From Chloroflexota bacterium (GTDB lineage: Bacteria > Chloroflexota > Dehalococcoidia > UBA2979), in contig JAQCIU010000004.1 of the NCBI GenBank assembly GCA_027593235.1, forward strand, positions 64,001 to 128,000: a DNA stretch of 64,000 nt, read 5' to 3'. Positions 4,396-46,430 of the stretch are shown here, piece by piece. Below the pieces are notes generated by a model, which was given only the letters and a program-made list of their open reading frames with translations, was not told where the DNA came from and ran no database searches. Made by a program: the position numbers and the translations under genes. The first letter of the stretch is position 1. Each line of letters begins with the position of its first letter.

Positions 4396-5007
4396 ATGCG
4401 GCACTTCGACGACACACCGGACGATTCCCGTCCAGCCAATCCATGGCCACGCCTGCTCGCCCTTGGCGCCGTAATTCTCGTCGCCATCCTTGCCTCCGGA
4501 GCTTGCCTCGTCGCCTTCCTCAACACCGGCGCCGAACCGGAGTTGCGGTTGACGATCGACGAAATCGAACCGGGCATCCCACGGTTCGAGCCGATTACGA
4601 ACTGGGGCGCCGACGACGAGCAATTCACTTACGGAATCTGGGTGGCCCAGATTGAGGGCGTCGGCACCCGTGCGTACCTGTCGCGCGACGTCGGCTCCGG
4701 ATGCCACGTCCAGTGGCTAGCCACCGCGCGCGTCGGCGAGACGGTCGGCCTGTTCCGCGACCGCTGCAGCGGCAGTAGTTATGACATCGGCGGCGCGGTG
4801 ATCGATGGGCCGGCCAGCCGCAACCTCGATCAGTTCAGCGTCACCACGCCGCCGGGCGAGGTGATCGTCGACTTCGCGGTGCTGCTCATCGGGGAATGCC
4901 ACGGTGCGCCGACATCCGACGCACCGATCTGCAGCACTGAACTTGGCACGACGACCCGCACGGTGCCGACGAGCCAGCGGTTGCCGGACGACTTCGCGAC
5001 GCGCTAG
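4396..5007 (+). CDS. Membrane-anchored Rieske-fold protein lacking canonical [2Fe-2S] ligands
   Basis: N-terminal TM helix; box1 DVGSGC, box2 DRCSGSSY, then GPASRNLDQF Pro-loop. Confidence 0.65.
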   Translation: MRHFDDTPDDSRPANPWPRLLALGAVILVAILASGACLVAFLNTGAEPELRLTIDEIEPGIPRFEPITNWGADDEQFTYGIWVAQIEGVGTRAYLSRDVGSGCHVQWLATARVGETVGLFRDRCSGSSYDIGGAVIDGPASRNLDQFSVTTPPGEVIVDFAVLLIGECHGAPTSDAPICSTELGTTTRTVPTSQRLPDDFATR

Positions 5008-5026
5008 CGCCGCAGGCCGAGGCTGG

Positions 5027-5356
5027 CTACCAGATCCCCAGTGCCATCTTGACCTCTTCCGAGGCCATCTCGCGCGGGTCCCACGGCGGGCTCCAGACGA
5101 GGTTCACCTCGACGTCTTCGACGCCCTCGACGTCCGTCGCCTTGTGGTAAATCATCCCCTGCAGCAGCGGGCCGACGGGACAGGCCGGAGAGGTCAACGT
5201 CATGTCGACGGTGACCATGCCCTCGTCGTCTACCGCGACGTCGTAGATCAGACCCAGCTCCGTGATGCTCATGTGGAGCTCGGGGTCTTCGACGGTCTTC
5301 AGGACCGCCCAGATCTCGTCCGTGGTCGGTCGCTTCTTCGTCTCGACATCAGCCAT
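5027..5356 (-). CDS. sufT: SufT / DUF59 metal-sulfur cluster assembly factor
   Basis: VEDPELHMSITELGLIY, MTLTSPACP and LVWSPPW motifs; last gene of the suf operon. Confidence 0.9.
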   Translation of the reverse strand: MADVETKKRPTTDEIWAVLKTVEDPELHMSITELGLIYDVAVDDEGMVTVDMTLTSPACPVGPLLQGMIYHKATDVEGVEDVEVNLVWSPPWDPREMASEEVKMALGIW

Positions 5357-5849
5357 CGTGGTTGGTCCTCTCGTCCGTCGTGGCCGGATCGGCCGCCGGT
5401 CGTGGTTTCAGTGCCTGTTCAAGCGTCTTCCAGGCCAGCGACGCGCACTTCACGCGCGCCGGGAACTTGGCCACGCCAGCTAGCATCTCGCTGTCGCCCA
5501 GATCGTATTCGCCCGCTTCACCGGTGAGCATCAGCTGCTGGAACGCGTCGATCGCCGCCTGCGCGCCTGCGCGATCCAGCCCGTTCACCTGCTCGGTCAT
5601 CATCGAGGCGGACGCCTGCGAGATGGAGCAGCCCTGCCCCGAGAAGCGCAACGCCTCGATGTTGTCACCGTCGAGCTGCACATCGAGGTGGATCTCGTCG
5701 CCACAGAGCGGGTTCGCGCCATCGGCCGCGCAGGTCGGCGCTTCGAGTTCGCCCTTGTTCCGCGGGCTGCGGTAGTGCTCCAGGATCACCTCGCGATAGA
5801 GGTCCTCCATCAGGCTCCCGGCGTTCTCGAGGTCGCGCCTGGCCGTCAT
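5349..5849 (-). CDS. sufU: SufU Fe-S assembly sulfur-transfer protein
   Basis: LYREVILEHY, NPLCGD, GQGCSISQAS and FPARVKCA motifs. Confidence 0.93.
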   Translation of the reverse strand: MTARRDLENAGSLMEDLYREVILEHYRSPRNKGELEAPTCAADGANPLCGDEIHLDVQLDGDNIEALRFSGQGCSISQASASMMTEQVNGLDRAGAQAAIDAFQQLMLTGEAGEYDLGDSEMLAGVAKFPARVKCASLAWKTLEQALKPRPAADPATTDERTNHDG

Positions 5850-5877
5850 CAGTTCGCCCCAAACAGCAGCGTGATCA

Positions 5878-7152
5878 TCAGCGGGTCCCAAACATGCGGG
5901 CGGTGTCCTCGACGGCGCTCACGAGCGCGTCGACTTCCTCGCGGGTGTTGTAGATGTAGAACGAGGCGCGCGCCGTCGCGGGCACCCGCAGCGCCGCCAT
6001 CACCGGCTGTGCGCAGTGGTGACCGGCGCGGATCGCGACGCCGTGGTCGTCCAGCACCTGGCCGATATCGTGCGGGTGCACGTCCTCGAGGGCGAACGAC
6101 AGGACGCCGCCGCGGTCCTCGGCGTTGGGCGGGCCAAAGAGCGTCACGCCCGGCACGTCACCCAGGCGTGCGAGCGCGTACCTCGTGAGGTCCAGCTCGT
6201 GCGCGCGAACCTGGTCCATCCCGAGTGCGTCGAGGTACGTGAGCGCGGCGCCAAAGCCGACGACGCCGGCGATGTTCGGCGTCCCCGCCTCGAGCTTCGC
6301 GGGCACCTCGGCCCAGGTGGACATCTCCTTGGTGACGGTGAGAATCATGTCGCCGCCACCCATGAACGGGTTCATCGCATCGAGGACCTCGAAGCGCCCC
6401 CAGAGCACGCCGACGCCGGTCGGGCCGAGCATCTTGTGCGCCGAGAAGGCGAGGAAGTCGATACCAAGCGCCTGCACGTCAATCGCCAGGTGCGGCACGA
6501 GTTGCGCGCCATCGACGAGCACCGTCGCGCCCTGCGCCTTCGCGAGCGGCACCAACTCCTCGAGCGGCACGATGCTTCCGAGGGCGTTCGACATCGCGGT
6601 GATTGCGAGCAGCTTCGTCTTCGGGCCGATCAGCGCGCGCGCGGCCTCGAGGTCGAGCGTACCGTCGGGCAGCATCGGGATGAACTTCAGCACGATGCCG
6701 CGCTCGTCGCGCAGCATCTGCCACGGCACGATGTTGGAGTGGTGCTCCAGCTCGCTGACCACCACCTCGTCGCCCGCCTGCAGGAACTTCCGTCCCCACC
6801 CGTGCGCGACGAGGTTGATCGATGCCGTCGTCCCGGACGTGAAAACGATCTCGCGTGAGTCCGCAGCGTTGATGAACGCCCGGGTCTGTTCGCGCACGTT
6901 CTCGTAGAGGCCGGTCGCTTCCTGCGACAGCGTGTGCACCCCGCGGTGGATGTTCGCGCTGTGGTCGCGGTAGAAGCGCGTCAACTCAGCGATCACCTGC
7001 ACCGGGTGCTGCGAACTGGCGGCGTTATCGAGGTAGACGAGCTTCGCGCCGGAGGCGACGTCACGCTGCAGGATCGGGAAGTCGCGGCGGATCTTCGCGA
7101 TGTCGTAGGCGCGCGGTGTCGCCTGCTCTTCCGAGATCACCGGCTGTGCCAT
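5878..7152 (-). CDS. sufS: SufS group II cysteine desulfurase
   Basis: YLDNAAS, NIHRGVH, SAHKMLGPTG and RAGHHCAQP motifs. Confidence 0.96.
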   Translation of the reverse strand: MAQPVISEEQATPRAYDIAKIRRDFPILQRDVASGAKLVYLDNAASSQHPVQVIAELTRFYRDHSANIHRGVHTLSQEATGLYENVREQTRAFINAADSREIVFTSGTTASINLVAHGWGRKFLQAGDEVVVSELEHHSNIVPWQMLRDERGIVLKFIPMLPDGTLDLEAARALIGPKTKLLAITAMSNALGSIVPLEELVPLAKAQGATVLVDGAQLVPHLAIDVQALGIDFLAFSAHKMLGPTGVGVLWGRFEVLDAMNPFMGGGDMILTVTKEMSTWAEVPAKLEAGTPNIAGVVGFGAALTYLDALGMDQVRAHELDLTRYALARLGDVPGVTLFGPPNAEDRGGVLSFALEDVHPHDIGQVLDDHGVAIRAGHHCAQPVMAALRVPATARASFYIYNTREEVDALVSAVEDTARMFGTR

Positions 7153-7484
7153 CAGTTGGCCTCGCCCTGCGCTTGCTCGCCACACTCGACGAGGACGCTA
7201 CCGCCCTCGGTCGTGACGGGGTAGGCCGCAACGTCCCGGACCGCGGGCAACGACAGCACCTTGCCAGTTTTCGCATCGAAGGCGGCGCCGTGCCGCGGGC
7301 AGATCACCCGCCCACGTTGCAGGCGGCCCTCGCCAAGCGGTCCACCATCGTGCGTGCAGACGTTGTCGATCGCGTACAACTCGCCGTCGATGTTGCTCAG
7401 CGCGAGCGAACGCCCCGCGCATTCCACCACTCGCACTTCGCCCTCGGGAATGTCATCGATCGCACCAACACGCTCACCGGTCAC
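7152..7484 (-). CDS. Rieske [2Fe-2S] ferredoxin
   Basis: CTHDGG and CPRHGA motifs; TGATG overlap with sufS. Confidence 0.93.
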   Translation of the reverse strand: MTGERVGAIDDIPEGEVRVVECAGRSLALSNIDGELYAIDNVCTHDGGPLGEGRLQRGRVICPRHGAAFDAKTGKVLSLPAVRDVAAYPVTTEGGSVLVECGEQAQGEAN

Positions 7485-7497
7485 AGACGATCCCTCG

Positions 7498-8730
7498 CTA
7501 CAGTTCCGCGTCCGCGAGCTTCGTCACGACGATCGATTCAAGCTCCTCGGCGAGCCCGGCCACGGGAATGTCCTGGATGACGGACTGGAAGAAGCCGGCG
7601 ACCAGAAGCTGGAACGCCGCACGCCGAGGTAAGCCGCGGCTCTGGAGGTAGAACAGCGCTTCCTCGTCGACCGGGCCGACGGTCGCACCGTGGCCGCAGC
7701 GGATCACGTCCGAGGTCAAAATCTCGAGCACCGGGTCAGAGTCCGCCTTCGAGTGACGCGAGAGCAGCAGATTGCGATTCACTTGTTCCGCGTGCGAGCC
7801 CTTCGCCGAAACCTCGACGCGGGTGACGCCGTAGTAGATGGACTTTGAGGCACCCGCGAGCGCTGCCTTGATCTCGACATCCGAGGTCGACTTCGGACCG
7901 ATGTGGTCTTGCAGCGTGACGAAGTCGAAGTGCTGGTCCCCATCGCCGAGGGCGACGCCTCGGATCGTGGAGTTGGCGCCTTCGCCCTCGATCAGCGCTT
8001 CGATCGTCTGCTTGATGATCCGCCCGCCAATCGCGAGCGATGCGACCTGGACGTCGGCGCTGCGGCCCACGCGGCTGCGTGCAGTCGTGAACTCGCGCGT
8101 CTCCGAGCCCCAGCGATCGTCGATCAGCACGCGCACACGCGAGTCGGAATCAGCGACGATCTCGATCACGCTGGAGACGAGCAACGGAGCGTCGCTCGAA
8201 CGAAAGCGCAGCACGACCGTCGCCTCGCTGTCGACGCCAGCGTCGATCAGCACGCGCGGATAGACCGCGCTGCCCGCCGCAACGGCGGTCGCGTCGATGG
8301 TCGCCACAACGGGGCTCTCGAGGCGTGCACCGCGTGGCAGGCGCACGTAGACGCCGTCCGTCCAGTGCGCAGCGTTGGCCGCCAGGAAGCGACCCTCGGT
8401 CGTCGTGACGACGGATCCGAGGCGTTCGCGGACCTGGTCGCCCTCGGAACCGGCGATCGCCTCGCGGAGGCTGCCGGCGAAGGCGCCCGGCGGAGCGGTC
8501 GCCTCGATGGTCAGCACCGGCTCGGCCGGGGCGTGCGACTCGATCACGAGGTCGCTGACGTCCGTGTACTTCCACGGGCGGAGCTGTGGCGTCGGCATCG
8601 GAGTTGATTCGAAGGCGCGAGCGCCCTCGGTGCGACGCGCGAGGAGCCAGTCCGGCTCGTTGCGCGCGGATGCGGCTGTGATGATGGCGGCCTCGGTGTA
8701 CGCCGAGGTCGTTGTGGTGACGTCGGCCAC
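7498..8730 (-). CDS. sufD: Fe-S cluster assembly protein SufD
   Basis: WKYTD, NRNLLLS, PVLEI, CGHGATVG and LFYLQSRG motifs. Confidence 0.93.
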   Translation of the reverse strand: MADVTTTTSAYTEAAIITAASARNEPDWLLARRTEGARAFESTPMPTPQLRPWKYTDVSDLVIESHAPAEPVLTIEATAPPGAFAGSLREAIAGSEGDQVRERLGSVVTTTEGRFLAANAAHWTDGVYVRLPRGARLESPVVATIDATAVAAGSAVYPRVLIDAGVDSEATVVLRFRSSDAPLLVSSVIEIVADSDSRVRVLIDDRWGSETREFTTARSRVGRSADVQVASLAIGGRIIKQTIEALIEGEGANSTIRGVALGDGDQHFDFVTLQDHIGPKSTSDVEIKAALAGASKSIYYGVTRVEVSAKGSHAEQVNRNLLLSRHSKADSDPVLEILTSDVIRCGHGATVGPVDEEALFYLQSRGLPRRAAFQLLVAGFFQSVIQDIPVAGLAEELESIVVTKLADAEL

Positions 8731-34893: not shown

Positions 34894-36126
34894 ATGACCA
34901 CCCAGCGCTCCGCGGGCACTCGCGTCTATCTGGATCACGCGGCGACCACGCCGCCGGATCCGCGCGTCATCGAGGCGATGCTGCCCTACCTGACGGAGCA
35001 CTGGGCGAACCCGTCTTCGATTTATGTCGAGGCCCAGCAGACGCGCCGTGCGATCGACGACGCGCGCCGGACGGTGGCGGCGGCGGTGGGCGCCGACGCA
35101 TCCGAGATCATTTTCACCGCGGGTGGGTCGGAATCCGATTCGCTCGCGCTGCGTGGCGTGCTCGCGGCAAGCAGGCGTCGAGGACGGCACCTCATCATCT
35201 CCGCCGTCGAGCATCACGCCGTCCTCGATACCGCCGAGCAACTGGCGCGCGACGGCGAGGCGGAGCTGACGGTCCTCGACGTCGACCGCGAGGGCCGCGT
35301 CGACCCGGCCCCAGCAGCCGCGGCGGTGCGCGACGACACCGTGCTGGTGTCGGTGATGCACGCGAACAACGAGATCGGCACCGTCAACGACATCGCGGCG
35401 ATCGCGCGAGCAGTACACGAACGCAACCCCCGCACCGCTGTGCATACGGACGCGGTGCAGTCGGTCGCGCACCTCGGTGCGAACGTGGACCGCCTGGGGG
35501 TCGACCTGATGACCTTTACCGGGCACAAGCTCTACGGGCCGCGCGGCGCTGGCGCGCTCTACGTCCGATCCGGGACCCCGCTCGCTCCGCAGATCCTCGG
35601 CGGCAGACAGGAGGAGCGGCGGCGGGCGGGTACCGAGGACACACCGGCGATCGTCGGCTTCGCGCGGGCGATCGCAATCGCGAACGAGCAACGCGAGGCC
35701 GACCTCAGCCACGAGCGCGCACTCCAGGCGCGGTTGATCGCGGAGCTGCCGAAGCGGATCCCGCTGACCGGCATCACTGGTCCCGCCAACCTCGATGACC
35801 GTCTGCCGGGCAACGTCTCCGCGCTGATTGGCTTCGTCGAGGGCGAATCGATCCTGCTGGCGCTCGATCTCGCCGGCTTTGCCGCCTCCTCGGGATCGGC
35901 GTGCACCACGGGGTCGGTCGAGCCGAGCCACGTACTCGTCGCGGCCGGTGTGCCGAACGAGCTGGCGCGCGGGTCGCTGCGGTTCAGCCTGGGGCGCGGC
36001 AATACCGAGGAAGACGTGGAGCGGCTGCTGGACGCCCTGCCGCCGATCGTCGAGCGCTTACGCGCCCTCTCACCGATGCCAACCACCGAGGCGCCGGCGG
36101 ATTGGTTACCGTGGCTGAGCGCGTAG
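34894..36126 (+). CDS. iscS: Group I cysteine desulfurase (IscS/NifS)
   Basis: [23 protein letters not shown] and SSGSAC motifs. Confidence 0.93.
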
Positions 36127-36226
36127 TTGCGCGCATCAGCGGCTCAGGCGCGCGCGACGCGTTTGCTCCTCAGATCAACCGCTCGCTAGGATTCGAGCGA
36201 TCGTCGCTCATTGGTCGGGGGAACGC

Positions 36227-36925
36227 GTGACCACGCACCAGCCAGACATAGCGATCCCGCACCCGCTGCTGGGTGGTCGGGATGAGGTCGGCGTCGACCT
36301 CGAGGAGGAGGTTCGGAAGAACGTCCTCGTCACCTCGGTCGACGGCATCCTGAACTGGGCGCGTTCGTCCTCGCTGTGGCCGGCGATGTTCGGCCTCGCG
36401 TGCTGCGCGATCGAGATGATCGCGAGCGCGACCTCGCGCTACGACATCGCGCGCTTCGGCTCCGAGGTCTTCCGCGCTTCGCCGCGGCAGGCAGACCTGA
36501 TGATCGTCGCCGGCACGGTGACCTGGAAGATGGCGCCGGTCCTCCGCCGCATCTACCTCCAGATGTCGGAGCCGCGCTGGGTTATCTCGATGGGCGGCTG
36601 CGCGATCATGGGCGGCCCCTTCGCCTTCGGGTACTCGGTGCTGCCGGGCGTAAACCTCGTGGTACCGGTCGACGTCTACGTCCCCGGCTGCCCGCCGCGA
36701 CCGGAGTCGCTGCTGCAGGGCCTGATGATGCTGCAGGACGAAATCCGAGACTTCGGCGTGACCAAGCAGCGGCGGCGCCCGGAGCCGGACGGCGACTTCT
36801 CCTCCTACCTGCCGGAAGGCGATCCGATTCGCCGCGAGCTCGAATCGCTGTGGCCGCCGTACCCGGGCCTCGATGACCCGAACCGCACATCGGGCGGCGT
36901 TCCGCTGCACGCGTTCCGCTCCTAG
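36227..36925 (+). CDS. nuoB: Stand-alone NADH-quinone oxidoreductase subunit B paralogue
   Basis: [23 protein letters not shown] and PGCPPRPE motifs. Confidence 0.9.
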
Positions 36926-37094
36926 CTCGAACGCCACCCTTGAGGGGCGTCCGTCGCTCCCCCCGGTATCGCCGTGTTCGCTGCGCTGACCGATCGGTCG
37001 GGCCGAGGACTAGCACGCGGGTGGTAGCATTTGCCGCGTCCGGCGCCCGAGTGGCGTGGACAGCTATCCAGCCGACACCGACGAGGAGCATCGC

Positions 37095-37520
37095 TTGAAG
37101 ATCAAGAACCGCGTCGCCTCGCTGCTGCGCCCTAACCAGGTCGCGCACGCGCACTGCGACATTCCCTGTGGCATCTACCACCCGCACATCGCCCAGCAAG
37201 GCGCCGAGAGCGTCGAGCGCATGTGCGTCCTGATCGGTGAGCTCGGCTCGCCGAGCGACAGCGCCGGCCACGCCTCCCTCTCGCGCTACGTCGCCGAGAA
37301 GGAGAAGGCCGCTGAGCTCGTGAAGCACGAGGTTCGCATCCTCTGGGGCGACTACTTCAAGCCGCCGCACCTGGAGATGTTCCCCGACCTGCACACGAAG
37401 GCCTGGACCATCATGAAGCTCGCCGGCACCGCCCGCGGCAGCGTCAAGATCGACGACGCGAAGGCACTGCGTGCCGCCGTCGACGAGTTCGCCGACATGT
37501 TCTGGAAGACGAAGGCATAG
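37095..37520 (+). CDS. sodN: Nickel superoxide dismutase precursor
   Basis: Ni-hook HCDIPCGIY after a short leader; LWGDYFKP and FWKTK motifs; GAGGAG before TTG. Confidence 0.95.
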   Translation: MKIKNRVASLLRPNQVAHAHCDIPCGIYHPHIAQQGAESVERMCVLIGELGSPSDSAGHASLSRYVAEKEKAAELVKHEVRILWGDYFKPPHLEMFPDLHTKAWTIMKLAGTARGSVKIDDAKALRAAVDEFADMFWKTKA

Positions 37521-37591
37521 TCCCTCACCTTCCGTACCGTTCGAATCGACCGAGACGGCTGCGCGCGGCTCTCAAACCGTTCGTAGCCGCC

Positions 37592-38146
37592 TTGTTGATC
37601 CTGCCCGCCGCGATCGCGCTGGTACGACTGCTCCGCAGCCGCTATTACCGTGTCGAGGTCGCCGGCGACAGCATGCGACCGACGCTGTACCCCGGTGACT
37701 TCCTGATCCTCCGTCGCGGCGCGCCAGCGTCCGGGGACGCCGCCGCGGGCGCGATCGTCGCGCTTCACGATGCGACCGGTCGATTGATCCTGAAGCGGGT
37801 GATCGGCCTACCCGGCGAATCGCTGCGCGTCGGGACGGCGGTGCTGATCAATCGCCGGCCGCTCCGCGAGCCCTATGCCCAGGGCGAGACGCCGCAAGCC
37901 CAGTTCCGAGGCGCCAACCAACTCGCGCCGGATGAGTACTTCCTGATCGGCGACAACCGCGAAGCGAGCACGGACAGCCGCGACTTCGGCGCGGTGACCC
38001 GCGCGCGCCTCGAGGGTGCCGCCGTCTTCCGCTACTGGCCGCCCGGCCGCCTGGGGCGCCTCGCGTCGCCTGGGCGTGTGCTTGGCGCCGTGCCTCCCGA
38101 TCCGGAACTGCCGCTGGGGATGATCCCGCCGCGCCCGACCGCCTGA
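37592..38146 (+). CDS. sodX: S26 peptidase, NiSOD maturation protease
   Basis: GDSMRPTL, LKRV, GDN..STDSR.FG motifs; directly downstream of sodN. Confidence 0.82.
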   Translation: MLILPAAIALVRLLRSRYYRVEVAGDSMRPTLYPGDFLILRRGAPASGDAAAGAIVALHDATGRLILKRVIGLPGESLRVGTAVLINRRPLREPYAQGETPQAQFRGANQLAPDEYFLIGDNREASTDSRDFGAVTRARLEGAAVFRYWPPGRLGRLASPGRVLGAVPPDPELPLGMIPPRPTA

Positions 38147-38303
38147 TCCACTTCGCCCCAACGGGCGTAGGGCTGATTCGACGTCAGTGCGCCGACAGCC
38201 GCGACGGTCAGTAGCACCGGGACTTCCCTATCCGGCTGTAAGCCCTGAATCGCCGAGGATTCTTACGAGTCACTGGAACCGCATGGACGCGGAGGACCGA
38301 CCA

Positions 38304-39206
38304 ATGGGGTCGACACTCAACCCCGACGAGGCTGGCGAACCGAACGAGTCGGACGCCGATCTCGTCATCCCTTCGTTGGACGAGCTCATCGAGCAGATCG
38401 CCGAACTGCATCCGCTCCCCGCGGTTGCGACCTCGATCTTGCGGCTGACGGAGCACGATCGCTTCTCCGCGCACGAACTTGCCAGCGCGATCACGGCCGA
38501 TCAGGCGCTGACGGCGAAGCTGCTGCGCCTGGCGAACTCCGCGTACTACGGCTTCCCCCGCACGATCGGGACCGTCCGCGACGCGGTGGTCTTGCTGGGG
38601 TTCCGCACGGTCCGCTCAACGACGCTGGCTTCCTGCGTGATCGGCACGCTGTCCGGCACGAACCACCTCAACTACGAGGAGTTCTGGCACTTCTCCGTGA
38701 GCACCGGGATGCTGGGCGAGATGCTTGCCCGCACCGAGGGTGCGCACCAGGACACCGCGTTCACCGCCGGGGTACTGCACAACATTGGCCTGCTGGCGAT
38801 GGACCAGCAGCGCCCGGAACTCCTCGGTGCGGCGCTCGCGTACGGGAGCAAGACCGGCATGAGCCGGCACGAGGCGCAGCGCGCCGTCCTCGGCTACACC
38901 GACGCCGATCTCGGCGGGGGTCTCGCCGAGGCGTGGTCGTTCCCGCCGGAACTGGTCGACGCGATTCGCGATCACGCGATGTCGCTCGACACCCTTCCCG
39001 ACCCGAGGAGCCTCACGGCGTTCGTACTGCGCGCGCGATTGCTGGTCCGCTCCCACGGGGTCGCAGACGGCATCGATCATCCGGAACGGATGGAGCTGCC
39101 CCAGGAATGGACCGCGCCACCACTGTCCGTGACACTCAAGCGCTCCGGCGGCATGGAGGGCGTTTTGGACAAGGTCGAGGCGTTCCTCGAATCGACCGTC
39201 CGCTAG
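38304..39206 (+). CDS. Stand-alone HDOD domain protein
   Basis: LHPLP, DQALTAKLLRLANS, AVVLLG, AGVLHNIG and WSFP motifs. Confidence 0.9.
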   Translation: MGSTLNPDEAGEPNESDADLVIPSLDELIEQIAELHPLPAVATSILRLTEHDRFSAHELASAITADQALTAKLLRLANSAYYGFPRTIGTVRDAVVLLGFRTVRSTTLASCVIGTLSGTNHLNYEEFWHFSVSTGMLGEMLARTEGAHQDTAFTAGVLHNIGLLAMDQQRPELLGAALAYGSKTGMSRHEAQRAVLGYTDADLGGGLAEAWSFPPELVDAIRDHAMSLDTLPDPRSLTAFVLRARLLVRSHGVADGIDHPERMELPQEWTAPPLSVTLKRSGGMEGVLDKVEAFLESTVR

Positions 39207-39223
39207 GCCCGATCCGGTTCGTC

Positions 39224-40531
39224 TCAGGATCCGCCCGACGCAGCGATCACCTCGGCAGTGCCGACGGTGAGTTCGAAGCAACCCCAGTTGTGTGGGGCGG
39301 CTGTCGCCACGATCGTCCAGATGCCCGGCAGGGGCAGGACGGGCGCAGTCACGAAGGTGAAGGGCTCGGATGCCGCCGAGCGGGGCCCCGGCGCCACGAA
39401 CTGGTAGGTGTGAACTGGCTCTGACGGTGAGCCGAGGGCGAGGCTTGTCGACCGATCGGTGCTCAACGTGTCGCGGATGGTGAGGGCGCCGAGTCGGTCC
39501 TGGTATTGCGGGAGCCAGATCACTTTCGAAGCCCGTCTGGCCGGCGAGTAGCCCTCGTTCACGTCGTTGCCAAAGCCGTTGGCGTAGGCGAGGCCGAACT
39601 CCCCCGACCGCACGCGTGGCCCCACATCAGCGGTCAGTAACGGGACACAGCTCCGCGAGTCGGTGCCAGACACCACCCCGTCGAATGTTGTGTAGCCGCG
39701 GAGTTCCGAGTCTTCTCCGACGTCGTCCCCGGCGGGCGGATCCGGGAACCATTGCGAACTCCCACTCGCCGGTGCTGGCCAGCGCACCGGGTCGCTCCCG
39801 CTCTCCAGCGTGAAGCATCCCCACAGCGGGCCCGCTGTCACCACGGCCATCCAGCGCGTGTCGCGCGGCGATTCGAAGACGAGGTCGTACACCCACGTTC
39901 CGCCGCCAGTCTGCGTCGGTTGCTGCATCGCCTCGACGAGATGCGTTGCCTCCCAGTTCGCGCTGTCGACAGCGCGAATGCGCAGCATCTGCGGATCTGC
40001 GGTGTCGCGGAGCAGATCGGGGGCGATCGGGAACAGAACCAACCGCCGCTGTCCCGCGGCCGGCGGTGCGCCGGGGCCGGCAGGCGAGCCCGCGTGAAGC
40101 ACCCAGTCCCCGGACTGGGCTCGTCCCTCCGCTGGCACCGACGGGCAGACCTCGGCGTCGGCGAGATCGAGGTCGAAGGCCGGCGGAGGCGCCCCCTCGA
40201 ATTGCCATCCGTCCGCGTGCACGGGCCGCTCCTTGATCGCCTCGTCGAGCGAGGACGGCGGCGTGCGGTTTACGCGCGTTGGGTGATCCCAGGCGACCGG
40301 CTGGTACAGGGAGGCAGCCGCCTCGGGAGCTGCGAGCGCCAACGGAGTGGAGGTGGCGGTGACCTCGGCGGTACGAGTGGATGGCGGAGTCGAGGACGGC
40401 GATGCCGCCGCCGCTCCGTCGGCGGCGGTCGGAGATGGCGGATCGTCCTCGGAGATGACGACGAAGACCAATGCCACGAGCGCAACGGCCGCGAGTCCAA
40501 CGATGCCGACGACGCGCCAGTGCTCGCGCAC
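39224..40531 (-). CDS. Membrane-anchored hypothetical protein with two WGCF-ending domains
   Basis: N-terminal TM helix, P/S/T/A linker, extracellular part paralogous to the upstream LuxR protein. Confidence 0.7.
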   Translation of the reverse strand: MREHWRVVGIVGLAAVALVALVFVVISEDDPPSPTAADGAAAASPSSTPPSTRTAEVTATSTPLALAAPEAAASLYQPVAWDHPTRVNRTPPSSLDEAIKERPVHADGWQFEGAPPPAFDLDLADAEVCPSVPAEGRAQSGDWVLHAGSPAGPGAPPAAGQRRLVLFPIAPDLLRDTADPQMLRIRAVDSANWEATHLVEAMQQPTQTGGGTWVYDLVFESPRDTRWMAVVTAGPLWGCFTLESGSDPVRWPAPASGSSQWFPDPPAGDDVGEDSELRGYTTFDGVVSGTDSRSCVPLLTADVGPRVRSGEFGLAYANGFGNDVNEGYSPARRASKVIWLPQYQDRLGALTIRDTLSTDRSTSLALGSPSEPVHTYQFVAPGPRSAASEPFTFVTAPVLPLPGIWTIVATAAPHNWGCFELTVGTAEVIAASGGS

Positions 40532-40594
40532 AACAGGCCTCGATTCTGCCTCGATGCTAGCAGCGCCGAGGGAGCGTGGGCCGAGCGGCGGCGT

Positions 40595-42199
40595 TCAGTT
40601 CCAGACACTGATCGGCTGCGAGGTGCCCGCATCCAGGACGAAGCAACCCCAGTTCACGGGAAGGATCATCGCCAGCACCGTCCAGCGACCGGCGACCGGC
40701 AAGAGGAAGCTGGTCCGGTAGATGTCCGACGGACGATCCACGCCTGGCACTAGGCCCCCGTACCAGGCACGACTGAACTCGACGGCATCCGCCGCCTCGA
40801 ACGTATGCAGCGGGCCGGCCTCGTCTCCGTCGACGAACGCGCGTACGGTCAGCGACGTCGATTCAGGGTGCAGGCCCATCCAATCCACCGCACCGTAGCT
40901 GCGAGCGTTGACGGGCCAGTCTGCCCAGGTCTCCAGCAGCCCCGCGGCGGCGATCTCCCCCGAGCGGACCGATGGAGGTCCGACATCGACGCAGACGCGG
41001 TCGTCGGAACCGGTGACCGCGGGGTGCCCTCGGGGGGCGGGGGCTACCCGTCCTGCCGGCGGAGCGACGTAGGGCAGCACGGGCTGGACATCCGCGCGGG
41101 TCGCAGGCCAGCCGTCCGCATCGCGTTCGGTGCTGACGAAGAAGCAGCCCCAGAGGGGGCCGGCCGTGACGATGGCGAGCCAGCGACCGGCCCGTGGCGA
41201 ATCGAACCGGGTCTTCACCACGCCGGCGCCATCGACGGGCTGGGATGTCCAGAGTTCGAAGACGTGGGTGGCCGTCCAGTGTTCGGTCTGGACCGCGCGG
41301 ATGCGCAGCGGCACTGCGGAGTCCGACCTCGGCGTGTCAGTCACGAGCTCCGCCAGAGCGACGCCGGGCAGCGTCAGCAGTACCGAGGGGTCGATCGGGA
41401 TCAGCTCCAGTTCGTAACGCCCGGCATCGGCAAACGAGCCGCGGAACGCAGGGACCAGACGCAGGACCCAATCACCGGACTGACCCGCGGCGCCATCCGC
41501 ACGAACGTCGATGCATTCCGTGGTGCCGAGCTTCGAGCGGTCGAACGCAGCAGGTGGAGCGCCTTCGAACTGGTACCCATCCTGGTAGATCGCACGCTCC
41601 GCGAGCGCCTGATCCAGCGAACGAGGTGGCACCCGATTGACCCGCAGCAGGTCGTTCCAGGCGAGCGGCCGGTAGAGCTGATCGAGCAGCTCCTCGTTGG
41701 TGAGATCGCCGAGCGAAATCGGCACCTGTTGCGTCCGAGGCGGCTGAGCCGTCGGTTCACCCTGGACGGCGGCGGGGGACGGAGCGACCTCGGGAGTCGC
41801 GGCGAGCAGGGAGGTGTCGGCGCGGCCGGAGCTGAGCAGCAATACGCCCCCGACCGCGACCGCCGCTGTGGCAAGCGCCGCGCCCGCGACGGCGGTCAGC
41901 ATCCAGCCGCGGCGCCGCGTGCGCGCTCGCTCACCCGCGACCCACTCGGCGATCTGCTCGCGGCGTTGGAGATCCAGGCGGGTCAGCAGCTCGGAGACGT
42001 GATATTTCGCGCCATCAAGCGAGATGCCGAGGCGCTCCCCGATCTCAACGTTGGTCAGGCCGCCGGCGACGAGGCGAGCGACCTCGAGCTGGCGCTCCGT
42101 CAGCGGCCGAGGGCCCTCGGGCAATCGCGGTTCCACGGGACCTCCCGGTTCGGTGGTGTGCTGGCGGTCAGTTTCGGGGGCGCAGCGACCGGTTGTCAC
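40595..42199 (-). CDS. LuxR-HTH / TM / extracellular-domain one-component regulator
   Basis: LTERQLEVARLVAGGLTNVEIGERLGISLDGAKYHVS, then RRR plus a TM helix and two WGCF domains. Alternative GTG start at 42136 with GGAGG. Confidence 0.8.
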   Translation of the reverse strand: MTTGRCAPETDRQHTTEPGGPVEPRLPEGPRPLTERQLEVARLVAGGLTNVEIGERLGISLDGAKYHVSELLTRLDLQRREQIAEWVAGERARTRRRGWMLTAVAGAALATAAVAVGGVLLLSSGRADTSLLAATPEVAPSPAAVQGEPTAQPPRTQQVPISLGDLTNEELLDQLYRPLAWNDLLRVNRVPPRSLDQALAERAIYQDGYQFEGAPPAAFDRSKLGTTECIDVRADGAAGQSGDWVLRLVPAFRGSFADAGRYELELIPIDPSVLLTLPGVALAELVTDTPRSDSAVPLRIRAVQTEHWTATHVFELWTSQPVDGAGVVKTRFDSPRAGRWLAIVTAGPLWGCFFVSTERDADGWPATRADVQPVLPYVAPPAGRVAPAPRGHPAVTGSDDRVCVDVGPPSVRSGEIAAAGLLETWADWPVNARSYGAVDWMGLHPESTSLTVRAFVDGDEAGPLHTFEAADAVEFSRAWYGGLVPGVDRPSDIYRTSFLLPVAGRWTVLAMILPVNWGCFVLDAGTSQPISVWN

Positions 42200-42244
42200 T
42201 ACCCGGAAGCGGTCGGTATGTCACTTCGACTGTCGTCGAGATGA

Positions 42245-43987
<1,743 letters not shown>

Positions 43988-44009
43988 ACCGGCCCCTCAG
44001 TCGGACACC

Positions 44010-44046
44010 AAACGGGGCCGGCATCCGCCGGCCCCGTTTTCTTTTC
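44010..44046 (+). terminator. Intrinsic terminator of groEL
   Basis: AAACGGGGCCGGC-atcc-GCCGGCCCCGTTT followed by TCTTTT. Confidence 0.88.
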
Positions 44047-44115
44047 CCGGCACCCCCGTTTTCTGTTCCGCGCACGGGGCCGCGTTACGCTGGATTGGCT
44101 GCAAAGGAACGCCCC

Positions 44116-44568
44116 GTGCACTACGGCGACAACGGCCTTGCTGTCGACTTCGATCAGCTCGCACTCGCGGTGGACGACGGCGACGTGATCGTGGTCGGGT
44201 TCGAGATGACCGCGAAGCGGCTGGTGATCGACCTGCGGCCGGACGATCACTCCCCGCCGCTGCTGGAGCTCGTGGAGCCCGTGGGCGGCGCGCATGAACG
44301 CAATGCCTGGCTGAGCGAGCGTCGACCCGGCGTGCCACTCCCAGAAAAGTTCGTCTATTTCATCTGGCCGCACAGCATCGAGATGCTTGGCCAGTCGCCG
44401 CTGTTCGAGCGCTCGCAAGCGCGGATCGCGCGCGAGCAGGGCATCGACGTCGCCGAGGAGATCAGCGACCTCGTCGAGGACCTTGAGCGGCGCGAACGCG
44501 ACGACCTCCGACGCGCGCTGGTCGGTGGTGACGGCTACGAAACGGTCTGGAGTCGCGACGGCGCGTGA
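44116..44568 (+). CDS. Hypothetical cytoplasmic protein
   Basis: AAAGGA RBS before GTG; globular, acidic composition. Confidence 0.65.
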   Translation: MHYGDNGLAVDFDQLALAVDDGDVIVVGFEMTAKRLVIDLRPDDHSPPLLELVEPVGGAHERNAWLSERRPGVPLPEKFVYFIWPHSIEMLGQSPLFERSQARIAREQGIDVAEEISDLVEDLERRERDDLRRALVGGDGYETVWSRDGA

Positions 44569-44666
44569 GTGCGGACGCGTGGCCTCGGTCACGCTCTCTG
44601 TCCTCGAATCGTGCGACCCTTGGCCCTCGCCGCCTCCCACCCGAGGCGCATCGGATGGAGGAAGCT

Positions 44667-45059
44667 ATGACCCGCCTCGTCGTCTACGGACGCTCCTCGT
44701 TCTGCCCGGACATGATGCGCTGGGACCACTGGCTCAAGCGTTACACCGTGGCGCACATCTCCTTCGACATCGATAGCGACCCCGAGGCGCTGGCGAAGGT
44801 GGTGGGGTGGACCGGCCATCAGTCCGTGCCGACGTTGGTGATCGCACCCGATGACGGCTTCGATCCGATCGAGGACCCGGCACCGCTGCCAGCCGGGCGC
44901 GGTCCGCGCGCGATCGATCGCGGCACGATGCTGACCGAGCCGAACCCCGGCCAGGTCGAGGCGTTCCTCGACCGTCACGGGATCCCCTACAGCGCCGCCG
45001 CCGCGGGCGACGGCGGTGACACCACCGGTGGTGGCCTGTTGAGCAAGCTCTTCCGCTAG
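44667..45059 (+). CDS. Monothiol glutaredoxin/mycoredoxin-like protein
   Basis: VYG..FCPD, DID.DPEA, TGHQSVPT (cis-Pro) and LTEP motifs. Confidence 0.8.
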   Translation: MTRLVVYGRSSFCPDMMRWDHWLKRYTVAHISFDIDSDPEALAKVVGWTGHQSVPTLVIAPDDGFDPIEDPAPLPAGRGPRAIDRGTMLTEPNPGQVEAFLDRHGIPYSAAAAGDGGDTTGGGLLSKLFR

Positions 45060-46430
45060 CGGCCGCTCCCGAGGGCGAAGGCGGGCCAGCGGTCCGTCCA
45101 CGGCAGCGCGGCCTCGATCTGCGCGGCCAGCGCGAGCAACTCCTCGTCAGCTCCGGGACGCCCGACGAGCTGCACGCCGATCGGCAGCCCGTCCTCGGAC
45201 ATCGCGACCGGGAGCGACAGCACCGGCTGGCCGGTGAAGCTGAACGGGAAGATGAACGGCCCGGCGTGCTGCGGTCCATCCGGCAGGCCCAGCGGCCATG
45301 CTGGCTGCCGCGTCGTCGGGGTCACGAGTACGTCGTGCGCATCCCACCACGCGAGGAGCGGCGCGACCTCGGTTGCGATCGCCGCCGCGCTCGCGCGCTG
45401 CTCCTCGGCGGATGGCAGCACCTCGACGCGCGGGTTAGTCCTGCGCGAGGTCGCCCACCGCGAGCGGGCGCCCAATCGTGCGCTCGAGCCAGCGCAGTTG
45501 GACCTCGCGCGCCGCGCCGATCGTCGGCATCAGCGCTGGCACGATGCGCTGCATGAAGCCGGGCAGCGCCGCCGGGGGTTCCGCGCCGACCTCGTGACCG
45601 AGAGCGCCGAGCGCGCGCCCAACCGCCGCCACCGCCGTAGCACAGGCGGGCGCTACCTCGGCGCGATGGTCGGCGTCGTGGTCGAGCAGGGCGACGCGGA
45701 GCGCCGCGAGCGGTGCGGACGTGCGGGCGTCGTTGGCCACGAGCGCGAACAGCCCCGCCAGATCGCGAACCGAGCGTGAGAGGGCGAAGCCGGACCAGAC
45801 GTCGCTCTGCTGCTCCGCCGGGATTGCCGTCGGTACGCGGCCGGGCGTCGGTCGCAAGGTCGCGACGCCGCATACGGCTGCGGGGACGCGCAGCGAGCCG
45901 GTGGCATCGCTGCCGAGGGCGATCGGGACGAAGCCGGCGGCGACGGCCGCTGCCGATCCTCCGCTCGATCCGCCCGCCGTCCGCCCTAGGTCCCACGGGT
46001 TCCTCGTTGCCCCGAACGCCGCCGGCTCGGTCGTCAGGCCGGAGGACAGCTCGGGGAGGTTCGTCTTGCCGATCGGCACGAAGCCGGCCACGAGGATTCG
46101 CCGCACGAACTCTGTGGTGCGGGGCGAGCGGTAGTCGAGGTCGCGCAGCACCGGCGTGCCGATCGTGTAGCGCGTTCCCGCCAACTCCTCGCCGCCGTCC
46201 TTCAAGAGGATCGGCACACCTCGGAAGGGGCGATCGTCCGCGGGGAGCGCGGCCACGAACTCGCGCGCGACCTCGGACAGTGGGGTGACGACGGCGTTGA
46301 TCGCGGGGTTCAACGCCTCCACGCGCGTCAACGCCGCCTCGACGAGCGCAGAGGGCGTAGTGACGCCCTCGCGGACGAGCGCGGCCTGCGCGGTCGCATC
46401 CAGGCGCCACCAGTCGTTGGGGAGTGACAT
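45056..46430 (-). pseudogene. Amidase signature family gene, interrupted
   Basis: GVPILLKD, GKTNLPE, GGSSGGS and DATGSLRVPA in one frame, ending at TAA 45435-45437. The C-terminus (HDVLVTPT, TGQPVLSLP, GLPIGVQL) is in another frame. Confidence 0.8.

Follow-up and report, generated by a model that had tools for sequence, protein, structure and literature searches.

A predicted transmembrane LuxR-type regulator and its helix-turn-helix-less paralogue share an unnamed two-cysteine, Ig-like module in a Dehalococcoidia genome

Two adjacent genes, at 40595-42199 (gene 1) and 39224-40531 (gene 2) of a 64,000-nucleotide (nt) stretch of a Dehalococcoidia genome, encode a membrane-anchored LuxR-type protein and a paralogue of it that lacks the helix-turn-helix (HTH). 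The whole stretch is referred to as the window (G000:C16:64001-128000; the genome, G000, comprises 3.39 Mb and is 89.7% complete). We read gene 1 as a transmembrane one-component regulator with a sensor and gene 2 as a co-transcribed partner that tunes its signalling, an interpretation that we hold, as a whole, with moderate confidence. Both proteins carry two copies of an extracytoplasmic module with an invariant W-G-C triplet (the WGC module), which appears to represent a new, previously unnamed sequence family. Both open reading frames had been proposed in an original prediction made from the nucleotide sequence alone, and were recovered at these coordinates, on the minus strand, which the prediction had left unnamed.

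A membrane-anchored LuxR regulator and its headless paralogue

The gene 1 reading frame encodes 534 residues when counted from the first GTG; the true start is probably the GTG at 42136 (VEPRLPEG), giving 513 residues, because both P0003 (a 513-residue protein, 98% identical to the gene 1 product) and the orthologue in the same-genus genome G003 have this length, and DNA conservation resumes exactly at this position. The GerE/LuxR HTH (PF00196) was matched at residues 32-86 (E 1.5e-9; 37.8 bits against a cut-off of 23.5), and GerE scores above the Pfam cut-off in 7/7 HTH-bearing members scanned (gene 1 and 6/6 others). A profile search of the PDB (alignment A2) matched only the HTH domains of NarL, GerE, DosR and VraR, and in NCBIfam only the HTH portions of NarL-type response-regulator models were matched. 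The HTH is followed, after a tether of about 12 residues, by one hydrophobic helix (residues 104-122, mean hydropathy 2.25) with RTRRRG on its N-terminal side; transmembrane helices were called by our own Kyte-Doolittle script rather than by TMHMM or another dedicated predictor. The predicted order of HTH, basic run, single transmembrane helix, Pro/Ala/Thr-rich linker and external region is thus borne out by PF00196, by hydropathy and by the translation, and the architecture is consistent with the proposed N-in/C-out, single-pass topology, with a cytoplasmic HTH and an extracytoplasmic, beta-rich sensor.

By the definition of a transmembrane transcription regulator (a DNA-binding domain together with at least one transmembrane region), gene 1 encodes such a protein. 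Trans_reg_C was not matched in gene 1 at E up to 1, the Pfam matches listed being only GerE, HTH_24 and DUF7646, which sets the protein apart from ToxR-like regulators. Other assignments were considered and set aside. A NarL/FixJ response regulator would need a receiver domain, for which the 31 residues ahead of the HTH (10 from the likely start) leave no room; for a quorum-sensing LuxR protein, Pfam shows no autoinducer-binding domain, and there is no space for one ahead of the HTH; and for an extracytoplasmic function (ECF) sigma factor or a sigma/anti-sigma fusion, region 2 is unmatched and TIGR02937 reaches only 11.7 bits, against a cut-off of 42.9, on the HTH only.

Gene 2 encodes 435 residues, with a cytoplasmic tail of about 6 residues and a transmembrane helix at residues 8-26 (Kyte-Doolittle), and its product has no Pfam or NCBIfam match. 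The two products are 38% identical over 383 residues (E 6e-52), in agreement with the proposal that gene 2 is an HTH-less paralogue sharing the transmembrane helix, linker and external region of gene 1. Since gene 2 follows the gene 1 stop after 63 nt on the common strand and has its own ribosome-binding site (GAGG, 8 nt 5' of its GTG), we infer that the two genes are co-transcribed. The locus is also present in other contigs: a contig from one sequencing run covers 39000-42406 with 3 differences, and a contig assembled from a different study covers 39934-42007, including the gene junction, with 36 substitutions and zero gaps; a separate contig of that same different-study run (depth 4.8) has a 3-nt insertion at 39370, inside gene 2. 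Samples in which the organism is present are aquatic and estuarine. No RNA family was found by Rfam within 36000-46000, a promoter scan returned 0 sigma-70-like sites, and the three terminator-like sites predicted fall within the genes and are regarded as spurious.

The class to which gene 1 is assigned is not new, as LuxR-type transmembrane regulators have already been catalogued. The original prediction had argued for novelty on the grounds that known transmembrane regulators use OmpR-type winged helices; that argument fails against the counts of a published census, in which GerE, present in 4,943 of 50,302 transmembrane transcription regulators, ranks third by frequency among the DNA-binding domains and Trans_reg_C accounts for 3,459 (PMC10269533, Supplemental Table 1A). 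According to the same source, about 57% of the catalogued proteins are without a recognisable second (sensor) domain (PMC10269533). In Bacteroidota, BguR and, by the account of its authors, SusR are membrane-spanning GerE regulators (bioRxiv 10.64898/2026.01.10.698779). GerE transmembrane regulators including BguR are, like gene 1, one-component proteins without a phosphorelay; as described in that preprint, BguR has the opposite order, with an N-terminal beta-propeller sensor and a C-terminal HTH, whereas the HTH of gene 1 is N-terminal and its sensor is of the new two-Cys type.

The topology of gene 1 is that of ToxR/ToxS, TcpP/TcpH, CadC and VtrA/VtrC, in which an N-terminal cytoplasmic DNA-binding domain is joined by one transmembrane helix to a C-terminal sensor on the outside, and in ToxR/ToxS-type systems a second membrane protein is encoded beside the regulator, as it is here. 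Periplasmic cysteines are important in both ToxR and CadC. However, ToxR-type regulators have an OmpR winged helix and an unrelated partner, whereas the present locus combines a GerE/LuxR HTH with a partner that is a paralogue of the transmembrane helix and sensor of the regulator itself; the fold and family of the sensor differ as well. What appears to be new is that a LuxR-type transmembrane regulator is combined with a headless paralogue and with an Ig-like two-Cys sensor from a family that had no name.

The WGC module: sequence family and fold

Compared with each other as single sequences by BLASTP, modules 1 and 2 of gene 1 align over no more than their final 30 residues (E 4e-5). Profiles built from nine family members each align end to end, over 112 columns (hhalign, probability 99.6%, E 2.7e-23), on which basis the internal duplication is regarded as real, and the claim of two module copies in each ectodomain is upheld; the motif C-x(8-13)-[QR]SG[DE] is present as originally written. 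All four Cys and the W-G-C triplet of each module are kept in 9/9 two-module ectodomains, so that of the proposed WGCF signature the first three residues hold and the Phe, which varies, does not.

As had been claimed, the module goes unrecognised by domain databases. Pfam matched neither window protein over the module and 0/30 relatives at E up to 0.01, and at E up to 10 it gave no recurring family among 130 members; NCBIfam left the module unmatched in 12 relatives, and a PDB sequence profile search with alignment A1 gave 0 matches. An exhaustive HMMER search of 1.84 billion representatives returned 475 proteins at E <=1e-3, 252 at 1e-10 and 27 at 1e-30. The best 24 are two-module proteins, and most others are single-module proteins of about 180-200 residues; among the best 150 matches, 109 are single-module proteins of up to 260 residues. 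These 109 retain the WGC triplet (106) and the upstream Cys (102), a hydrophobic segment is present at the N terminus of 83, and 88 have exactly two Cys past residue 35. An earlier word-indexed homologue search of the ectodomain had given one near-identical match only and is superseded by HMMER; two metagenome scans, with alignment A4 and P0011 as queries, found no relatives. The HTH-bearing relatives of metagenomic origin include P0011, P0013, P0014, P0016 and P0022.

Where the source names the relatives, it calls them 'hypothetical protein'. The named metagenome-assembled genomes that carry them (12 loci) belong to Dehalococcoidia, Thermomicrobiales, Chloroflexia/Chloroflexota, Gemmatimonadaceae/-ales, an actinobacterium and Acidobacteriota. 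Given the lipoboxes of two-module relatives (see below) and the N-terminal hydrophobic segments of single-module ones, the module is predicted to act outside the cell. In P0037, P0054 and P0087, a single WGC module is fused to a Peptidase_M74-like segment, a TonB C-terminal domain (TonB_C) and an acidobacterial VWA domain. The neighbours at 10 single-module loci are heterogeneous: VanW/PG_binding_4 adjoins in two related Chloroflexota loci, and the genes are otherwise unrelated.

The 360-residue ectodomain of gene 1 was modelled with AlphaFold2 (AF2) from a 130-row alignment (mean predicted local distance difference test, pLDDT, 85.4; predicted TM-score, pTM, 0.87) as a short helical prelude followed by two all-beta modules. 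The prelude has the invariants Y2, P17, P18, A24 and F45 in alignment A1 and a modelled helix at 21-32; the strands of module 1 span 56-183, a block in which pLDDT is mostly >90. In each module the two Cys, between which a disulfide had been proposed, lie in the first and last strands, by both model and alignment. A reading of the 'WGC' Cys as a YkuD-like catalytic residue was dropped, because both Cys are equally invariant and are placed in terminal strands. A Chou-Fasman estimate of 0% helix and 26% strand is crude and is superseded by the AF2 models.

The modelled module is an immunoglobulin (Ig)/fibronectin type III (FnIII)-like sandwich, predicted to be of a new sequence family. The best Foldseek matches of the two-module model in the PDB are tandem FnIII pairs (E 1.7e-4, query TM-score 0.17), and the FnIII, Ig and Runt matches have identities of 6-18% and query TM-scores of 0.15-0.19. 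In VIA-align, against 48,161 chains, the same model reaches a maximum Z of 6.5 (a Runt domain), with FnIII at about 6 and CrdA, HftA, P19 and PmoD at 4.9-5.8; the matches to a Runt domain (6.5) and to CrdA (5.7) fall on module 2 (residues 214-360). The single-module relative P0066, modelled from 101 rows (pLDDT 89.9, pTM 0.82), gave nothing in Foldseek at E up to 1e-3, and its best VIA-align match is Helicobacter pylori CrdA (Z 7.5, root-mean-square deviation 2.6, 91 residues, 9% identity), ahead of adhesin and FnIII repeats (6.7), HftA (6.0), Tp34 (5.9) and P19 (5.5). No structural match of either model reaches Z 8, and since the CrdA score is below this value and tied with FnIII domains, the relationship is not specific. 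FnIII, s-type Ig and Runt-like domains share with the module a general sandwich of seven to nine strands, a common arrangement that is uninformative on function. Thus, of the match to a characterised family that had been named as grounds for doubting novelty, only a generic Ig/FnIII-like fold was found, and no characterised family claims the module.

There is a faint and non-specific leaning of the models towards extracytoplasmic metal-handling sandwiches. CrdA, YtkA/CtaK, DUF4871, CopC and P19/HftA are likewise small, secreted or lipid-anchored Ig-like sandwiches; CrdA/YtkA-type sandwiches have no sequence relationship to the WGC module, and to our knowledge the two-Cys/WGC signature is not a feature of CrdA/YtkA/CopC-type families. 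In the ESM Atlas, queried with the stored P0066, 30/30 nearest clusters are unnamed, and the nearest named are YtkA-like/DUF4871 (feature score 0.76, TM-score 0.40-0.51) and CopC/YtkA (TM-score 0.45). YtkA/CtaK is described as a lipoprotein domain implicated in CuA assembly (PMC13344008). Neither PF13115 (YtkA) nor PF16167 (DUF4871) matched any of 130 family members at E up to 10; six-frame searches of G000 with both gave 0 matches, a weak result for PF16167, whose control had no match in the control genomes.

Exchanged ectodomains, phylogeny and the upstream box

Gene 1 is assigned, by sequence comparison, to a Dehalococcoidia scaffold family in which an HTH and a transmembrane helix carry swappable ectodomains. 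A search of G000 with the gene 1 HTH gave 13 matches. At least five of these have an N-terminal HTH and one transmembrane helix and differ from one another in the outer part: gene 1 itself, a Kelch-repeat protein (C32), a propeller-like protein and a second, smaller one (both C43), and a small protein (C15). The HTH of the C32 protein is 58% identical to that of gene 1. This closest paralogous membrane LuxR regulator (G000:C32; L049 1393-3204) has a Kelch-repeat beta-propeller as its ectodomain and the same upstream box as gene 1 (see below), and its orthologue, box included, is present in G003:C32. A database search with gene 1 residues 22-125 returned 67 clusters with the HTH-transmembrane scaffold. 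Among these, Kelch repeats (9), M23 and/or LysM (9), PD40/DPPIV (2) and an HD domain (1) were recognised, and in about 46 of the 67 no domain other than the HTH; any of the 67 that carry a name are called 'helix-turn-helix transcriptional regulator [Dehalococcoidia bacterium]'. P0166, P0178, P0195, P0200, P0203 and P0204 combine a LuxR HTH and a transmembrane helix with Peptidase_M23, some with LysM in addition; such fusions place a DNA-binding head on a peptidoglycan hydrolase-like ectodomain. A literature search on Dehalococcoidia LuxR transmembrane regulators found no paper on this scaffold. Two HTH subtypes are distinguished, type I ('LGISLDGAKYHVSELL') and type II ('PDVLTPAEWRVL...NTVR.HVS').

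The two-module family was found in 6/41 relatives, in 11/99 genomes of the taxonomic family (7/21 genera), and in 3/401 genomes sampled from the class, all three of the same taxonomic family (five candidates scored per genome). Tandems of HTH-bearing and HTH-less genes, the recurrence of which had been proposed as a check, occur in two genera. In G003 the HTH-bearing gene is followed by two HTH-less, transmembrane-anchored copies, with groEL upstream and an HDOD gene downstream, as in G000; in G106, of a different genus, a type-II HTH-bearing gene is followed after a 9-nt gap by a lipoprotein paralogue. G081 has a solo HTH-bearing gene, and G024 has two lipoproteins in tandem and a third elsewhere. 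In G019:C4 (L017), a two-module lipoprotein gene (4491-5735, minus strand) is divergent from a type-I LuxR-transmembrane regulator gene (5838-7577, plus strand) whose 480-residue ectodomain is unrelated, Cys-free and repeat-rich, with no Pfam match in the protein except GerE.

A tree of 29 two-module ectodomains was computed with IQ-TREE, after P0003 and nine exact duplicates had been dropped; 13 of the 29 carry a lipobox (LAAC or LSAC, by our own regular expression). Clade A comprises 8 type-I HTH proteins and 3 proteins with only a transmembrane anchor. Within it, two of the HTH-less proteins each have an HTH-bearing sister, P0011 for gene 2 (97/93) and P0016 for the G003 copy G003_b (98/92); G003_c has a long branch and its placement is unsure. 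Clade B comprises 18 rows, 13 of them lipoproteins by the same expression, with one nested type-II HTH clade (100/100) that groups (100/99) with three lipoproteins, including G106_b, the tandem neighbour. Because the type-I HTH proteins fall in clade A and the type-II proteins are nested among the clade B lipoproteins, the ectodomain appears to have joined LuxR-transmembrane scaffolds at least twice, on two different scaffolds. Because they nest in HTH-bearing clades, the HTH-less copies found in the window's genus have the appearance of regulators whose HTH was lost, a history that would require three losses as against at least four gains. Over the 28 pairs formed by the 8 HTH-bearing clade A proteins, median identity is 76% in the HTH and 39% in the ectodomain, which would fit a common DNA target and diverging sensors.

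Comparison within the genus revealed a conserved box, GGGTAGTGACAAC, ahead of gene 1, a candidate operator or promoter element. In G000, its sole zero-mismatch site is upstream of gene 1 and its sole one-mismatch site is upstream of the type-I Kelch regulator; the exact 10-mer of the box likewise occurs at just these two places in all 3.39 Mb, each ahead of a gene for a type-I membrane LuxR protein. Across four genomes, 5 of 6 exact sites of the box GGNTAGTGACAAC lie 51-64 nt upstream of membrane LuxR or family genes: in G003, 2/2 box sites precede the two orthologous regulators, and in G023 the single site is 51 nt before a gene for a lipoprotein of the family. G081 also has one site, but it stands ahead of a gene for an unrelated secreted protein whose flanks differ, and we regard it as fortuitous. 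With each orthologue pair counted once, there are three roughly independent placements: gene 1 with its G003 orthologue, the two Kelch regulators, and G023.

Signalling model, genomic setting and significance

In the proposed mechanism, gene 1 would act as a single-pass regulator in which the cytoplasmic HTH is connected, through the transmembrane helix and a flexible stalk, to an extracytoplasmic sensor of two Ig-like two-Cys modules. Binding of an envelope or external ligand would alter the pairing of ectodomains and, because LuxR HTHs bind DNA as dimers, altered pairing could shift HTH occupancy at the operator. As operator, the GGNTAGTGACAAC box ahead of gene 1 is the best candidate, and this would imply autoregulation of the two-gene operon. 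Gene 2, headless but still equipped with a transmembrane anchor and sensor, would most probably pair with gene 1 via the ectodomain or the transmembrane helix and, as co-receptor or decoy, tune or attenuate signalling. The analysis itself establishes the anatomy of the proteins, their paralogy, the fold class and external location of the module, the modular scaffold and its double recruitment of the ectodomain, the recurring tandem and the placement of the box; the ligand role, DNA binding, heteromerisation and direction of regulation are inferred. In a more specific form of this mechanism, gene 2 would heterodimerise with gene 1 via both transmembrane helix and sensor and so, as a dominant-negative gain control, keep a two-headed DNA-binding dimer from forming; members of the scaffold family would share the GGNTAGTGACAAC box as operator; and the WGC module, with metals among its possible ligands, would be a widespread extracytoplasmic binding domain that was twice made into a sensor. 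We regard this full combination as speculative and rather improbable.

Several observations weigh against the proposed mechanism. The two-module family is patchy (11/99 and 3/401 genomes), no RNA runs with the locus were found, and the contexts of the single-module relatives yield no functional clue. The case for HTH loss is one of parsimony only, and recombination within arrays would mimic it. As for the box, a reversed control of the 10-mer also has 2 sites in G000, so that only the position of the box is unusual and not its frequency; the G000 and G003 sites, being orthologous, cannot be taken for independent occurrences; and the box could be a promoter element rather than an operator. Furthermore, there are no box sites in the G001 and G019 genomes, and the box is absent, at up to one mismatch, from the fetched loci of G024, G019, G106, G068, G004 and G081 and from the type-II regulator loci.

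The foremost alternative is that gene 2 and the lipoprotein relatives are themselves the working envelope proteins (for example, binders of metals or wall components), and that gene 1 is a sensor copy that recognises the same ligand and controls their expression, without any contact between the two. The logic is similar to that of BlaR1, the sensor of which is a paralogue of the enzyme family under its control. Most family members are small, stand-alone, secreted proteins that must have a function of their own; clade B consists mainly of lipoproteins, and its one HTH clade groups with three of these, including the tandem partner G106_b. The box of G023 precedes a lipoprotein member, and in G019 the lipoprotein gene is transcribed away from that of a type-I membrane LuxR regulator whose ectodomain is unrelated. 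The structural neighbours include the periplasmic copper or iron binders CrdA (7.5), HftA (6.0), Tp34 (5.9) and P19 (5.5), as well as the Atlas lead to YtkA/DUF4871/CopC, although these matches are tied with FnIII, all at Z <8. However, the HTH-less copies of clade A retain a transmembrane anchor, not a lipobox, and are nested in HTH clades, which makes them more like truncated receptors. We consider this explanation a genuine but doubtful possibility.

Alternatively, gene 1 could be released by proteolysis: a signal-dependent cut would free an HTH head of about 95 residues, and the headless copy would either act as a competitor for the protease or resemble what remains after the cut. Successive site-1 and site-2 proteolysis is known for membrane anti-sigma factors. 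The tether of about 12 residues would make chromosomal DNA awkward to reach while the protein is held at the membrane, and the long, unstructured stalk would suit a site-1 cut. Yet there is no protease gene that accompanies the family from genome to genome, and the nearby S26 peptidase probably serves the Ni-superoxide dismutase encoded beside it; moreover, ToxR- and CadC-type regulators work while membrane-bound, by the account of the census (PMC10269533). Release by proteolysis seems distinctly unlikely. That the proteins are structural or adhesive envelope components built of tandem Ig-like domains, with the HTH a fusion relic of no regulatory role, would accord with a fold nearest to FnIII/adhesin repeats and an S-layer protein (Z 5-6.7), but is scarcely credible given an HTH that is much better kept than the ectodomain (76% against 39%) and above the Pfam cut-off in 7/7 members scanned, and the same ectodomain fused to two different LuxR-transmembrane scaffolds.

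The features assigned within the two genes and upstream of gene 1 are collected in Table 1.

Table 1. Features of the regulator locus, in window coordinates
Feature	Position	Strand	Basis
Gene 1: LuxR HTH, transmembrane helix, stalk and double-module ectodomain	40595..42199	(-)	Reading frame list, translation, Pfam GerE
GerE/LuxR HTH, residues 32-86, predicted cytoplasmic	41942..42106	(-)	PF00196
Basic juxtamembrane run and single transmembrane helix, about residues 100-122	41834..41902	(-)	Kyte-Doolittle
Pro/Ala/Thr-rich stalk, residues 123-174	41678..41833	(-)	Translation; not kept among relatives
Ectodomain prelude LYRPLAW...PP...F, one modelled helix	41528..41677	(-)	Alignment A1, AF2
Module 1 of gene 1, Cys229 to WGC352, modelled Ig-like beta-sandwich	41120..41527	(-)	hhalign, AF2
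Module 2 of gene 1, Cys403 to WGC519, modelled Ig-like beta-sandwich	40598..41017	(-)	hhalign, AF2, VIA-align
Conserved box GGGTAGTGACAAC, 55 nt ahead of likely gene 1 start; candidate operator/promoter element	42192..42204	(-)	Same-genus comparison
Gene 2: HTH-less paralogue; transmembrane helix 40454-40510, stalk, double-module ectodomain 39227-40309	39224..40531	(-)	Reading frame list, pairwise alignment

Between gene 1 and the divergent groEL (ATG at 42377) there is a CIRCE-like inverted repeat, TTAGCACTC-N9-GACTGCTAA (42297-42323), which is kept in G003; it is presumably the HrcA operator of groEL and separate from the regulator described here. Downstream of groEL lies a gene for a small glutaredoxin-like protein (44565-45059, plus strand; E 1.5e-6). 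On the other side, a stand-alone HDOD-domain protein (38187-39206, plus strand; E 3.9e-51) is encoded convergently with gene 2 and is the same neighbour in G003. It is preceded by a Ni-superoxide dismutase gene (37056-37520; Sod_Ni, E 6.6e-43) and an S26 signal-peptidase-like gene (37592-38146), the product of which we take to mature the dismutase (the SodX role). Linkage of the regulator to sodN/sodX, HDOD or groEL holds within the genus (G003) but does not extend to other genera, and was not used.

Membrane one-component regulators are numerous and almost all unstudied, and this locus provides a concrete, foldable example. It defines an extracytoplasmic domain family with 475 cluster representatives that appears to have been wired to DNA-binding heads twice, and the candidate operator and natural HTH-less partner make the putative signalling logic testable in a heterologous host. 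For the Dehalococcoidia, which are hard to grow, the locus points to lineage-specific sensing of the outside.

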